A DNA stretch of 64,000 nt from Labilithrix sp. (GCA_019637155.1 JAHBWE010000017.1:1-64000); one strand, 5' to 3'. Counted from the stretch's first letter, positions 59,315 through 62,303 are shown. Notes: generated by a model from the sequence alone, not told the origin. Numbers and translations: made by a program.

Positions 59315-60391
59315 TCACCGACGCACGAGGCGGAACCCGATGTTGGGGGCGCCCCACGCGTGGACGTCCGGATGCCGCCACGATCCTTGCTCCCGCGCGG
59401 CGCGGAACGAGACCGTCACCGCGTCGGCGCAGTCGGCCCACGAGCCGCCGCGAACGACGCGCCTCGCGGGCGCGTCGGGATCGGGCGGCTCGCCTCGCGC
59501 CGCGCGGTGGTACGCGAGCGCGTCGTAGCGATCGGCGGTCCACTCCGCGACGCCGCCGCACATCGCGTGGAGGCCGTAGCCGTTCGGCGGATACGCGCGC
59601 GGATCGGTGAGGTGGAACGCGCCGAACCGATCGAAGTCGCAGCGCTCGCGCGTCGGCGCCTCGTCGCCCCATGACCAGCGGCGACCGAGCAGACCTCCGC
59701 GCGCGGCCTTCTCCCACTCCGCCTCGGTGGGCAGGCGGTAGCTCGCATCCGTGCTCCGCCGCGAGAGCGCCGCCGCGAGCTCCTCCGCGTCGTATGCGCT
59801 GATCGCGACGAGCGGCTTCCGGTCGTACGTGGGCGGGTCCTCTTCTGCGCGCTCGTAGTGGTAGCGCCAGTCGAACGCGGTGGGCGTGTCGCCTTCGCAG
59901 TACTGGAGGCGGATCTTCCCGAGCTCGCGGAGCATGAACGCCGGACGCACGAAACCTTCGTCGTCTTCTTGCTGGAGCGACGGATCGTCGTCCGAAGGAG
60001 AACCGTCCGGCGGCGGGCTCCAGCCGAGCAACGCGCAGTACGCCGCCCACGTCAGCGGCACGTCCGTGATCCAGAACGCGGCGACGCGACGGCGATGGAC
60101 CGGCCGCTCGTCCGGATCGCCCGTCGCCGAGCCCATGAGGAACGTGCCGGCGGGGACGTAGCGGAAGCGGAGGCCGTGCTCGTCGATCGCGAGCTCGTCG
60201 AGGACCGCGCGGCGCTGGCGCGCGACGCCTTCGTCGTTCGGGAGGAGACCGTACGCGCGATCGAGCGCCGACGCGGCGAGGGCGCGCTCGCCGCGGCTCA
60301 GGAACCAGTCCGCCGCGACGAGGCAGCGCTCGCCTTCGTCGATCGAGCCGGGACCTCCCGCCGCGAGGATGGACTCGGGATCGAAGCTCAT
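59315..60391 (-). CDS. FGE-sulfatase / SUMF1-EgtB-PvdO family protein with N-terminal helical extension
   Basis: YVPAGTFLMGS...ERPVHRRRVAAFWI... and RVVRGGSWA signature; start overlaps rSAM gene stop (ATGA). Confidence 0.8.
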   Translation of the reverse strand: MSFDPESILAAGGPGSIDEGERCLVAADWFLSRGERALAASALDRAYGLLPNDEGVARQRRAVLDELAIDEHGLRFRYVPAGTFLMGSATGDPDERPVHRRRVAAFWITDVPLTWAAYCALLGWSPPPDGSPSDDDPSLQQEDDEGFVRPAFMLRELGKIRLQYCEGDTPTAFDWRYHYERAEEDPPTYDRKPLVAISAYDAEELAAALSRRSTDASYRLPTEAEWEKAARGGLLGRRWSWGDEAPTRERCDFDRFGAFHLTDPRAYPPNGYGLHAMCGGVAEWTADRYDALAYHRAARGEPPDPDAPARRVVRGGSWADCADAVTVSFRAAREQGSWRHPDVHAWGAPNIGFRLVRR

Positions 60392-61662
60392 CGCAGCACC
60401 GGCAGGTGCATCGTCGCGAGCGGCGGCCGCGCGCGCGTGCGGTCCCACGGATCGGGAGCGTCGACGTCGCCGTACGCGGCGAGCGAGCGCGCGCGGCACC
60501 CGGTGAAGAAGCGATCCGGCCCCGGCTGCGCGGCGCGGAGGCGACGGAACGCGTGACCCGCGCGCCAGATCTCGGAGAACGATCGCGCGCGGAGGTTGCC
60601 GCTCTCGAACGCGGCGCCGAGGAAGCTGCACGGGTTCACGTCGCCCGTCGCCGACACGCTCGCGACGAGGTTCGCCGCGCCGCAGCCCGGCGGGCTGAAC
60701 GTCTTCGCCTGCGCGTCGGCGCGCGCGCTCGGCGCGAACGTGTCGATCGCGTGGACGTCGTGACCGAGCCGCGCGAGCTCGTCGAGCGCGCGCGTGTACT
60801 CTTCGAACGTCGGCATGAGGTCCGGCCGCGAGCGCGCGACGCCGACGGGGTAGAGCGGGCGGAACACGGCGTTGCTCGCCCCGAGCTCGCGCGCGAGCTC
60901 CGCACAGGCGACGACCTCGCCCGCGTTCTCGCTCGTGATCGTGAACGCGAGGGTGAAGCGAAAGTGCCGCCCGTACGCGCGGAGCCGGCGCGTGACCTCG
61001 TCGAACGTGCCCGCGCCGCGCACGGCGTCGTTCGTCGCCGCGGTCGCGCCGTCGAGGCTGACGTTGACCCACGCCATCGCGCGCTCGGAGAACGATCGCG
61101 CGACCGCTTCGTCGACGAGGAGGCCGTTGGTCGTGAGGCACGGATGGAGCCCGTGCGCGAGCGCGGCGTCGACGATCGCGAAGAGGTCCTTCCGCAGGAG
61201 CGGCTCGCCGCCGGTGAGCCCGATCCGGAACGTGCCGAGCGCGGCGAGCTCCGCGAACAGCCGATCGATCTCCGCGAGCGAGAGGTCCGCCTTCCGCGGC
61301 AGCGCACCGGCGAAGCAGTGCGTGCAGCGCAGGTTGCACGCGGCGATGACCTCGAGGTGGAGCGCGAGCGGCCCGAGGAGGTGATCGACCGGCGGCGCGG
61401 CGTGCGGCGCGCGCACCTCGCCCGCGAACCGCCCGTCGGGGAGGAAGAAGCCCTCCGCCTCGAAGTGCGCGAAGAGGTCCGCGACGAGCGCGCGCCGCGC
61501 CGCGTCCTCCTCTTCTTCGATCGCGGCGAAGGTCCCGACCGCGGCCGCGCGGCGGAAGAGCGCGGTCGTCTCGTGATCGAACGGGAGGTAGCGCGACGTG
61601 CGGCGATCGAAGACGAGGCTCCCGAAGTGCTGCGGGACGAGGACGAGCGCGGGCCGCGTCAT
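60388..61662 (-). CDS. radical SAM / SPASM(twitch)-domain maturase
   Basis: CNLRCTHCF (CxxxCxxC), GGEPLL, VSLDG, C-terminal CGAANLV...GDVNPC...GC auxiliary-cluster cysteines. Confidence 0.85.
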   Translation of the reverse strand: MTRPALVLVPQHFGSLVFDRRTSRYLPFDHETTALFRRAAAVGTFAAIEEEEDAARRALVADLFAHFEAEGFFLPDGRFAGEVRAPHAAPPVDHLLGPLALHLEVIAACNLRCTHCFAGALPRKADLSLAEIDRLFAELAALGTFRIGLTGGEPLLRKDLFAIVDAALAHGLHPCLTTNGLLVDEAVARSFSERAMAWVNVSLDGATAATNDAVRGAGTFDEVTRRLRAYGRHFRFTLAFTITSENAGEVVACAELARELGASNAVFRPLYPVGVARSRPDLMPTFEEYTRALDELARLGHDVHAIDTFAPSARADAQAKTFSPPGCGAANLVASVSATGDVNPCSFLGAAFESGNLRARSFSEIWRAGHAFRRLRAAQPGPDRFFTGCRARSLAAYGDVDAPDPWDRTRARPPLATMHLPVLR

Positions 61663-62303
61663 CGCTCCTCCCGCGCCGCGAACGAGATCCGGACCCACGC
61701 TTCGTCGAGCGGCGCGCCGGCGTCACCGAGCGCGAGCATCGTGAGCCCGTCGGCGGCGAGCCGCTCGAACGGCCGCCGCACGTCGGCGGGGAGCGACGCG
61801 AGCGCGGCGTCGTCCGCGTGCGCGACCGCGCGCCAGGAGCGATCGTCGAAGTCCGGCGCGATCGGCGGCGACGCGAGCGGCCCCGGATGCCACCTCTGTA
61901 CGACGCCGGACGCGATCGGCAGCATGTTGTCGGCGCGGTCGCCAGGTCCGCGATCGGGATAGACGCCGATCGCGACGGGCACCGGCGGCGCGAGGTCGAG
62001 ATCGCGCCCGCGCCACGGCATCCGCCCGAGGCTGCGGAGGCGAAGCGCGACGACGTGACGACCGGGCCCGAGCGGCGCGCGATCACCACCGAGCAGGACG
62101 CCGTCGAGCCACGTGTCGACGGCGCCGATCGCGACGACGCGCACCCGCGCGGAGGGACCGAGCCGCGGATCGATCCAGCGGAGCACGACGCCGCCGCATC
62201 CCGCGGGCACCTCGCAGTGGGAGTACTCCTGCAGCGTGAGCCGCGGCGAGTGCTTCTCGAAGCGATGAAGCGTGTTGATGCGGAGGTCGCTCTCGTCGCT
62301 CAT
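61659..62303 (-). CDS. hypothetical protein, first gene of rSAM-FGE operon
   Basis: 214 aa; stop overlaps rSAM start (ATGA); no recognised domain. Confidence 0.45.
   Translation of the reverse strand: MSDESDLRINTLHRFEKHSPRLTLQEYSHCEVPAGCGGVVLRWIDPRLGPSARVRVVAIGAVDTWLDGVLLGGDRAPLGPGRHVVALRLRSLGRMPWRGRDLDLAPPVPVAIGVYPDRGPGDRADNMLPIASGVVQRWHPGPLASPPIAPDFDDRSWRAVAHADDAALASLPADVRRPFERLAADGLTMLALGDAGAPLDEAWVRISFAAREER

Follow-up and report, generated by a model that had tools for sequence, protein, structure and literature searches.

The present study suggests that three adjoining genes on a stretch of Labilithrix sp. DNA may encode a self-contained system for the maturation of a full-size protein. 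The stretch (GCA_019637155.1 JAHBWE010000017.1:1-64000), referred to here as the window, is 64,000 nucleotides (nt) long, and the genes lie on its minus strand between positions 59,315 and 62,303. They encode a protein termed X, a radical S-adenosylmethionine (SAM) enzyme (rSAM), and a protein with the fold of the formylglycine-generating enzyme (FGE). Comparison of related loci establishes that X, rSAM, and the FGE-fold gene constitute a conserved, autonomous functional unit. Sequence and structure comparisons further suggest, with a probability for the overall picture of roughly 0.45, that this unit is a protein-maturation cassette in which the rSAM enzyme docks on the N terminus of X and modifies a cysteine-containing loop there, the FGE-fold protein acting as a non-copper partner. 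X is likely the substrate of the cassette enzymes and is the best candidate for that role; thioether formation, the chemistry that we favor, appears to be the least secure part of the proposal.

Conservation and autonomy of the gene trio

Orthologous loci were collected with the rSAM protein as the query, using one genome per species, and 80 further loci came from a metagenome scan with a profile of X; cassette counts refer to 92 related loci, with one locus, L011, left out. The rSAM query yielded 10 orthologous loci at 56-72% identity, and in 10/10 of them X and the FGE-fold gene directly adjoin rSAM, in the order X-rSAM-FGE or X-FGE-rSAM and with junctions of -8 to +12 nt. Where at least 150 nt of sequence is available past X, an rSAM gene (67 loci) or an FGE gene (5 loci) begins no more than 400 nt after X in 72 of 76 loci, and the trio is complete in 26 of the 27 loci that extend at least 2.6 kb past X and in which an rSAM or FGE gene follows X closely. 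The sole exception among these 27 is a decayed copy, L041. The suggestion in a preliminary description of this DNA, that the three genes form one unit, is thus borne out by the conservation of the triad in relatives. Cultured Phototrophicus methaneseepsis (Chloroflexota) and Nannocystaceae bacterium ST9 also carry the triad, with unrelated neighbors each time.

Nothing else recurs with the trio. All-against-all comparison of ORFs (open reading frames), carried out on 12 and then on 37 loci of at least 6 kb, revealed neither a recurrent fourth gene nor a recurrent separate precursor ORF. The cassette is bordered by one divergent and one convergent gene, and these flanks, together with the tight junctions, leave no room for a separate small precursor ORF. 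A pyruvate phosphate dikinase gene lies upstream in four related loci and was dismissed as lineage synteny; Ser/Thr kinase matches are paralogues.

Several individual loci are of interest in their own right. In L041 (6001-6889), X residues 1-89 are joined straight to FGE-fold residues 186-357, and rSAM is gone. In L054 (metagenome contig Ga0316231_1008524), an insertion of ~2.8 kb, perhaps a mobile element or an intron, divides rSAM into 1403-1909 and 4765-5544 (residues 3-172 and 159-411); X and its FGE-fold neighbor are both intact. Complete cassettes are also found in L007 (JBGQHJ010000045.1) and L008 (JBKBRF010000011.1), metagenome-assembled and labelled Candidatus Methylomirabilia and Armatimonadota; the explanation is either horizontal transfer to lineages outside Myxococcota and Chloroflexota or wrong binning of the contigs.

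The GC content around the cassette is ~72-75%, and long chance ORFs are therefore common. The X, rSAM, and FGE-fold ORFs are nonetheless judged to be real genes rather than high-GC chance ORFs, because their homologues are numerous and because the start/stop overlaps recur (1-8 nt) in orthologous loci. For X there are 272 homologues and 572 cluster representatives at 50% identity; the rSAM family has 779 relatives at E<=1e-60, and the FGE-fold family has 824 at E<=1e-40. In orthologous loci the X/rSAM junctions are overlaps of -1 to -8 nt, and the rSAM/FGE-fold junction is -4 nt in most. In the window itself, the positions of the three minus-strand genes and their two ATGA overlaps, as reported in the preliminary description, were read directly. 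The NCBI record for the FGE-fold gene (P0366, 328 aa) begins 30 codons downstream of the ATG that overlaps rSAM; the 358-residue reading is better supported, because orthologues align from residue 1, mostly with a 4-nt overlap. A consensus scan for promoters and terminators returned no sites and is uninformative in a genome of 72% GC, and a search of the whole window against Rfam gave no match.

A module that is patchy across phyla, with unrelated neighbors at every locus, invites comparison with conflict and defence systems. FGE-fold domains have been noted as sensors in bacterial conflict systems, and PADLOC profiles for prokaryotic viperins (pVip) match the rSAM core (1.8e-21). On such an account the FGE-fold protein would sense an invader, rSAM would make a toxic or antiviral product in the manner of viperin, and X would be an adaptor. 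We regard this as very improbable. The pVip match covers only the generic rSAM core (residues 103-217), and neither X nor the FGE-fold protein matches any PADLOC model. The loci contain no NTPase, nuclease, or other effector; their neighbors include housekeeping genes, such as that for pyruvate phosphate dikinase, and the rSAM architecture, described below, is of the peptide maturase type.

Protein X is the likely substrate

An exact match to X (P0001) belongs to a Labilithrix sp. genome (Myxococcota) that was assembled from a metagenome. X has no match in Pfam, NCBIfam, or PADLOC, and its N-terminal segment matches no family in these collections even at E<=10. This segment is the most conserved part of the protein. 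The consensus is DDDLRxNTLHRFxKHSPRLxLxEYSHCEVPAGCGGVVLRW; over residues 7-44 the top residue has a mean frequency of 0.90 and the entropy is 0.43 bits, and the corresponding values for residues 45-214 are 0.43 and 2.44 bits. Across 111 aligned sequences, C30, E31, A34, G35, C36, G37, and G38 are invariant. The motif reads HCE[VI]PAGCGG in 214 of 245 relatives and SCEVPAGCGG in most of the others; the residue ahead of the first motif cysteine is His or Ser across the wider family. The motif starts at residue 26-35 in nearly all homologues and is identical in Myxococcota and in Chloroflexota (Phototrophicus). The AlphaFold2 (AF2) model of X has predicted local distance difference test (pLDDT) scores of only 47-62 over residues 1-40, and DSSP places CEVPAGCGG in a loop linking strands 22-29 and 39-44. 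Four X relatives (P0158, P0163, P0201, and P0221; 363-381 aa) have two tandem beta-sandwich bodies and a single N-terminal segment, and the second body carries no Cys motif.

Several lines of evidence mark X as the likely substrate. It is first in the operon, with no space left for a further precursor ORF; conservation is ~90% over residues 7-44, although these are modelled with low confidence, and both loop cysteines are invariant; and the two-body relatives keep one N-terminal segment. The preliminary description had proposed a substrate other than a sulfatase, either X or a peptide. X is indeed the best candidate, whereas a separate peptide is left without space for its gene.

Direct reading of the sequences revealed no signal-peptide-like hydrophobic N-terminal stretch in X, rSAM, or the FGE-fold protein, and the system is therefore probably cytoplasmic. 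Double-glycine leader cleavage after GCGG was considered for X and rejected, as the cassette has neither a peptidase nor a transporter and the motif departs from the leader consensus.

The radical SAM enzyme resembles RRE-bearing peptide maturases in its predicted architecture

Pfam recognizes the Radical_SAM domain (6e-24) in rSAM and a SPASM domain (5e-7) at residues 327-378. The CNLRCTHCF sequence (CX3CX2C) noted in the preliminary description is present, and its cysteines, C109, C113, and C116, are invariant in 118 sequences. The C-terminal cysteine cluster, which had been described as twitch/SPASM-like, calls for a narrower definition: the Pfam SPASM match agrees with it, but C327, C345, and C389 are the only invariant cysteines of this region among 118 orthologues, and a CX2CX5CX3C motif is absent from the family alignment. 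Because only three cysteines are invariant, the C terminus is classed as a Twitch-type half-SPASM, with one auxiliary-cluster site and three Cys ligands, and is predicted to bind a cluster.

At its N terminus the AF2 model of rSAM (overall pLDDT 89) contains a small domain in which DSSP assigns strands at residues 6-11, 14-19, and 24-28 and helices at 30-42, 44-49, and 54-69, with pLDDT 89-98; G14, F18, Y25, P27, F28, and D29 are invariant in 118 sequences. This beta3-alpha3 arrangement is that of the RRE, the recognition element of enzymes that modify ribosomally made, post-translationally modified peptides (RiPPs), and the domain is placed as the RRE is in SkfB and CteB. The best Foldseek match of the whole model is SkfB (6efn; E 5e-19, TM scores 0.65/0.71, 386 aligned columns), followed by SuiB and CteB; these three, which are the rSAM peptide maturases of known structure that bear an N-terminal RRE, align over 386-474 columns, versus 311-356 for PqqE and anSME, the last at E 5e-13. 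Searched against PDB sequences, rSAM matches PqqE over its full length (5e-13), SkfB (1e-11), CteB (7e-10), and anSME in the core only (2e-5).

Against NCBIfam every match of rSAM falls under its model's cut-off. The top model is MftC (165 bits, cut-off 265), the next are AhbD, NirJ2, and StsB, and no anSME model is among the best 25 of 73 matches. The preliminary description had left room for rSAM to group with canonical anSME; NCBIfam, PDB sequences, and Foldseek all rank other enzymes ahead. On its modelled structure, rSAM is not anSME-like and resembles RRE-bearing peptide maturases in predicted architecture. The view of rSAM as a peptide maturase thus draws on the predicted beta3-alpha3 RRE topology, on SkfB, SuiB, and CteB as best matches, and on the three-Cys Twitch region.

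The FGE-fold partner lacks the copper site

Pfam FGE-sulfatase (PF03781) matches residues 79-357 of the FGE-fold protein at 2e-43, and the best PDB sequence match is the Streptomyces coelicolor FGE (3e-19). The RVVRGGSWA sequence reported in the preliminary description is present, and the RGGSW and EAEWE.AARGG motifs of the fold are kept. The active site has diverged: 'RGGSYL-CHDSYCNRYR' of S. coelicolor FGE aligns with RGGSWADCADAVTVSFR, where Cys occupies the first Cu-site position and Thr the second. Across the family, Cys is found at the first position in only 15/25 loci and 89/120 proteins and Thr at the second in 24/25 loci; the Phototrophicus protein has no Cys at either. Since the Cu-binding Cys pair is missing, the FGE-fold protein cannot be a canonical Cu-dependent FGE.

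Nor does it fall within another curated family. NCBIfam scores remain far below the cut-offs for GldK (92/350 bits), EgtB (50.6/360), PvdO (44/500), and SenA, and the EgtB match is restricted to the C-terminal part. The N-terminal ~78 residues are helical and TPR-like; no family in Pfam, NCBIfam, or PADLOC, and no DinB domain, matches them even at E<=10, and a Pfam TPR_16 match was found in one of 824 relatives. Two cysteines are nearly invariant: Cys165 (116/120), in a family-specific insert ('QYCE'), and Cys251 (115/120), at 'RCDF'.

These features bear on the idea that the cassette is a dual formylglycine system, in which an anSME-type rSAM and an FGE would both convert a Cys in X or in some other protein that is not a sulfatase. 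In its favor, the FGE-sulfatase fold is evident (2e-43), an invariant Cys of X is followed by Pro at +3, and anSME belongs to the same SPASM/Twitch superfamily as rSAM, with a Foldseek E of 5e-13. However, the copper Cys pair is absent, with Thr at the second position in 24/25 loci, a variable first position, and neither Cys in Phototrophicus. rSAM has one auxiliary-cluster motif, whereas anSME has two, and its RRE-like domain is foreign to anSME, which matches rSAM in sequence at an E of only 2e-5 and has no model among the best 25 of the 73 NCBIfam matches. Finally, the X motif is CEVPAG rather than CxPxR. We therefore consider a dual formylglycine system very unlikely. The preliminary description had started from the premise that the anaerobic and the aerobic formylglycine enzymes sit together here, and had proposed searching X for a C/S-x-P/A-x-R core. 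The premise fails for both enzymes, rSAM not being anSME-like and the FGE-fold protein lacking the Cu-binding Cys pair, and the motif found in X, C-E-V-P-A-G-C, is not C-x-P-x-R.

The absence of a nearby sulfatase, also noted in the preliminary description, holds across the 64-kb window and the 92 related loci: a sulfatase-signature scan found none, and tblastn with a genuine 787-aa sulfatase found no homologue. That sulfatase comes from L011 (Myxococcaceae bacterium GXIMD 01537, CP120527.1; 2165-4528 and 8001-8627), which served as a positive control for the searches and is the only locus where a sulfatase was found. Its 787-aa protein has a CSPTR signature, and 3.5 kb separate its gene from an unrelated rSAM downstream that is 29% identical to the query; the locus looks like a classical sulfatase/anSME neighborhood.

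A model for the cassette

Collectively, these comparisons are compatible with a model in which X is both substrate and product of an autonomous cassette that would be horizontally spread and cytoplasmic. Residues ~7-28 of X would act as a RiPP-like leader that docks on the RRE-like domain of rSAM and so brings the CEVPAGCGG loop into the active site. There rSAM would cleave SAM reductively, and the resulting 5'-deoxyadenosyl radical would take a hydrogen from a loop residue. The sulfur of one of the invariant cysteines would then be joined to that carbon, aided by the single Twitch cluster, whose three-Cys site may ligate the substrate Cys, to give an intramolecular thioether ring of the sactionine or ranthionine type. 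The FGE-fold protein, its copper site lost, would bind the Cys-Pro loop much as FGE binds CxPxR, and would hold, present, or further process it.

Every argument for X as the substrate holds equally for a scheme with other chemistry, namely epimerisation, a C-C or C-O link, or Cys desulfurisation or oxidation by rSAM, followed by a second new reaction that the FGE-fold protein carries out via Cys165 and Cys251. SuiB, which forms a C-C crosslink, is structurally as close to rSAM as SkfB is, the closest NCBIfam model, MftC, is that of a decarboxylase/C-C cyclase, and Cys165 (116/120) and Cys251 (115/120) lie in family-specific parts of the FGE-fold protein. Two invariant loop cysteines and a three-Cys Twitch site are, however, most simply accommodated by a thioether, and CEVPAGCGG contains no aromatic residue for a cyclophane-type link; we judge the alternative chemistry rather unlikely.

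A bolder version of the substrate proposal would make X the founder of a new class of rSAM-matured proteins. The CEVPAGCGG loop of its 200-aa beta-sandwich would become a new protein-derived center, a Cys crosslink or cofactor for redox or metal chemistry, made jointly by the RRE-Twitch rSAM and by a copper-free FGE-fold enzyme that had become newly catalytic; one possibility is that the C-x5-C pair of X sits at the former C-x4-C copper site of the FGE fold. This version, too, seems improbable.

Several observations weigh against the maturation model. The RRE assignment is structural only, because no PqqD or RRE profile in Pfam or NCBIfam matches the N-terminal domain of rSAM even at E<=10, and PADLOC likewise gave nothing for it; the domain is called RRE-like from its predicted topology and its position only. 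A folded substrate of 214 residues is unusual for RRE-dependent rSAMs, and we found no precedent for the role proposed for the FGE-fold partner. Alternatively, the motif could serve X as a structural or metal-binding hairpin loop, given that DSSP places it between two strands of the model. The acceptor residue and the thioether are guesses, and the observations would be matched equally well by epimerisation, by oxidation of a Cys, or by a C-C link. Solitary full-length X genes with an intact HCEVPAGCGG occur in L073 (3583-4386) and L075 (~5970-6597), where neither an rSAM nor an FGE-fold gene was found over more than 5.6 kb downstream or elsewhere in the fetched locus; the partner enzymes may be encoded elsewhere in those genomes. 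Lastly, the best PDB sequence match of the rSAM core is BlsE, a small-molecule Twitch enzyme, and Twitch enzymes often work on small molecules.

The last point leads to a small-molecule pathway, in which a BlsE-, BtrN-, or MoaA-like Twitch enzyme would cooperate with an FGE-fold protein of the EgtB, PvdO, or ToxD kind, and X, with its sugar-binding-like beta-sandwich, would be a binding, carrier, regulatory, or metal subunit. The RRE-like domain of rSAM and the peptide maturases that are its closest structures speak against such a pathway, and the 37 long loci contain no recurring biosynthetic, transport, or regulatory gene. Moreover, the iron-binding DinB domain of EgtB-type enzymes is absent, and X is most conserved in its poorly ordered Cys segment, not in the putative ligand-binding body. 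The EgtB/PvdO-type pathway raised in the preliminary description is thus the less likely interpretation, on account of the RRE-like domain and the lack of any other biosynthetic gene, and we regard a small-molecule role as doubtful.

Relation to known systems

By analogy, the cassette would work most like SkfB/SkfA and CteB/CteA and, conceptually, like QhpD/QhpC and anSME with its sulfatases. SkfB, the sactisynthase of the Bacillus subtilis sporulation killing factor (6efn), has an N-terminal RRE, an AdoMet radical core, and a Twitch domain that carries one auxiliary cluster (PMC6231123), which is the three-module plan predicted for the rSAM described here; the two are only 24% identical. SkfB and CteB both form Cys thioethers and have an open site on the auxiliary cluster Aux I, which the substrate Cys ligates in CteB (PMC6231123). 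The SkfB substrate, like X, bears Cys, and its precursor gene adjoins the maturase gene. SkfA, however, is a 55-residue peptide whose cleavage, cyclisation, and export fall to other skf genes, whereas the putative substrate here is a folded protein of 214 residues; moreover, unlike skf, the cassette has no protease or transporter, its motif lies near the N terminus of X, and the FGE-fold partner is obligatory. CteB/CteA and PapB/PapA provide a second point of comparison, being RRE-dependent systems that bond the sulfur of Cys to a carbon in a different residue; the PapB NCBIfam model matches rSAM at 8e-20, under its cut-off. CteB and PapB differ in having a full SPASM domain that holds two auxiliary clusters, substrates that are short peptides whose Cys motifs are repeated, and no FGE-fold partner.

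Two further systems modify full proteins. QhpD installs Cys-to-Asp/Glu thioethers in QhpC, the gamma-subunit of quinohemoprotein amine dehydrogenase, and this subunit remains part of a functional protein instead of being secreted as a peptide. The invariant Glu beside Cys in the X motif is a likeness to QhpC; QhpC is ~80-110 aa long and is matured with a protease, a flavoprotein, and an exporter, encoded beside dehydrogenase subunits, and none of these is found in the cassette. anSME resembles rSAM in being a SPASM-superfamily enzyme that acts on Cys or Ser of a full-length protein, but has two auxiliary clusters (a seven-Cys SPASM), no RRE, a C/S-x-P/A-x-R substrate, and a neighboring sulfatase.

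FGE/SUMF1 and its relatives (pFGE/SUMF2, PvdO, the C-terminal domain of EgtB, GldK/PorK, and ToxD) share the fold and the structural motifs of the FGE-fold protein. Human FGE binds Cu(I) through a Cys-x4-Cys pair, C336 and C341, that the FGE-fold protein lacks; the loss of the catalytic Cys is something that it has in common with pFGE and PvdO. Two additions set it apart from FGE, a TPR-like segment at the N terminus and a family-specific insert whose Cys ('QYCE') is nearly invariant, and it is missing the N-terminal DinB-like iron-binding domain of EgtB/OvoA-type sulfoxide synthases. For rSAM, MftC (TIGR03962) is the highest-scoring curated family, at 165 bits against a cut-off of 265, but the SPASM domain of MftC is a full one and its RRE is a protein apart, MftB. 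Because only the triad recurs in the 37 loci of at least 6 kb, there are no recurring genes of the MftA/B/D/E/F type among the neighbors, although no profile search was aimed at them. The MftC labels on several rSAM orthologue records are over-annotations. The cassette proteins lack defining features of the anSME, FGE, EgtB, and MftC families and are not members of them.

Novelty and significance

No curated family exists for X in Pfam 2025 or NCBIfam June 2026, and a full-text literature search that included the motif string CEVPAGCGG found no paper on the gene trio. A compendium of RiPP rSAM enzymes mentions anSME only in another context (PMC10288494). Database labels for the three proteins run from 'hypothetical' and 'radical SAM protein' to a wrong 'MftC' and 'formylglycine-generating enzyme required for sulfatase activity'. 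What appears to be new is the substrate family and its obligatory partner; rSAM-dependent maturation of peptides and proteins is already known.

If the model is right, the cassette, which occurs in hundreds of bacteria from soil and water, represents a widespread rSAM maturation system whose substrate is a folded protein of full size and not a short peptide. X forms hundreds of sequence clusters, in Myxococcota, in Chloroflexota, and in metagenome-assembled genomes assigned to other phyla. The model would further assign a new function to the FGE fold, that of an obligatory rSAM partner devoid of the copper site, and three large protein families would gain annotation. The hypothesis is directly testable, with three genes only and a single tryptic peptide, LTLQEYSHCEVPAGCGGVVLR, that holds the proposed site. 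Cultured hosts are Phototrophicus methaneseepsis, Nannocystaceae ST9, and Myxococcus hansupus.

Sequence features of the cassette

Table 1. Features of the X-rSAM-FGE cassette, in window coordinates (aa, amino acids)
Feature	Position	Strand	Description
Gene X	61659..62303	minus	214 aa, predicted cytoplasmic, no described family; conserved N-terminal segment and beta-sandwich body
X conserved N-terminal segment, codons 7-44	62172..62285	minus	LRxNTLHRFxKHSPRLxLxEYSHCEVPAGCGGVVLRW; first part is the proposed leader-like docking segment
X CEVPAGCGG loop, codons 30-38	62190..62216	minus	Cys C30 and C36; proposed modification site
ATGA overlap, X stop TGA / rSAM ATG	61659..61662	minus	Read from sequence: GAGCGATGACGCGG
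rSAM gene	60388..61662	minus	424 aa from ATG; RRE-like domain, AdoMet radical core, and Twitch-type domain
RRE-like domain, rSAM codons 1-95	61378..61662	minus	beta3-alpha3, RRE (PqqD-like) topology, predicted
CNLRCTHC	61315..61338	minus	CX3CX2C for AdoMet radical [4Fe-4S] cluster; residues 109-116, read directly
Twitch-type auxiliary-cluster region	60496..60684	minus	Residues 327-389, C327-x12-G340-x4-C345 ... C389
ATGA overlap, rSAM stop / FGE-fold ATG	60388..60391	minus	Read from sequence: CTGCGATGAGCTTC
FGE-fold gene (SUMF1/EgtB/PvdO family)	59315..60391	minus	358 aa; helical TPR-like ~78 N-terminal residues, then FGE-sulfatase domain, residues 79-357
RGGSWADCADAVTVSFR, residues 314-330	59402..59452	minus	Aligned to FGE active site; Cu-binding Cys pair degenerate

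Other features of the window

The window also contains a ~1 kb intergenic array of degenerate tandem repeats (54037-55040) whose period is ~41-42 nt, with further periods of 66 and 125 nt, and whose copies are 60-97% identical. The array has a strong strand asymmetry, with an AT skew of +0.33 to +0.36, and sits between a minus-strand gene (53202-53909) and a plus-strand gene (55181-55903). It has no match in Rfam, and a CRISPR was considered for the 54-55 kb repeats and rejected, as there are no unique spacers. The genes at 55181-55903 and 55970-57502, both on the plus strand, are not conserved beside the cassette in other genomes. Both products are apparently secreted: the former is a protein of 240 aa in which 22 glycines follow one another without a break, and the latter a probable lipoprotein of 510 aa with a right-handed beta-helix (Pfam Beta_helix 1e-8, NosD 7e-8).

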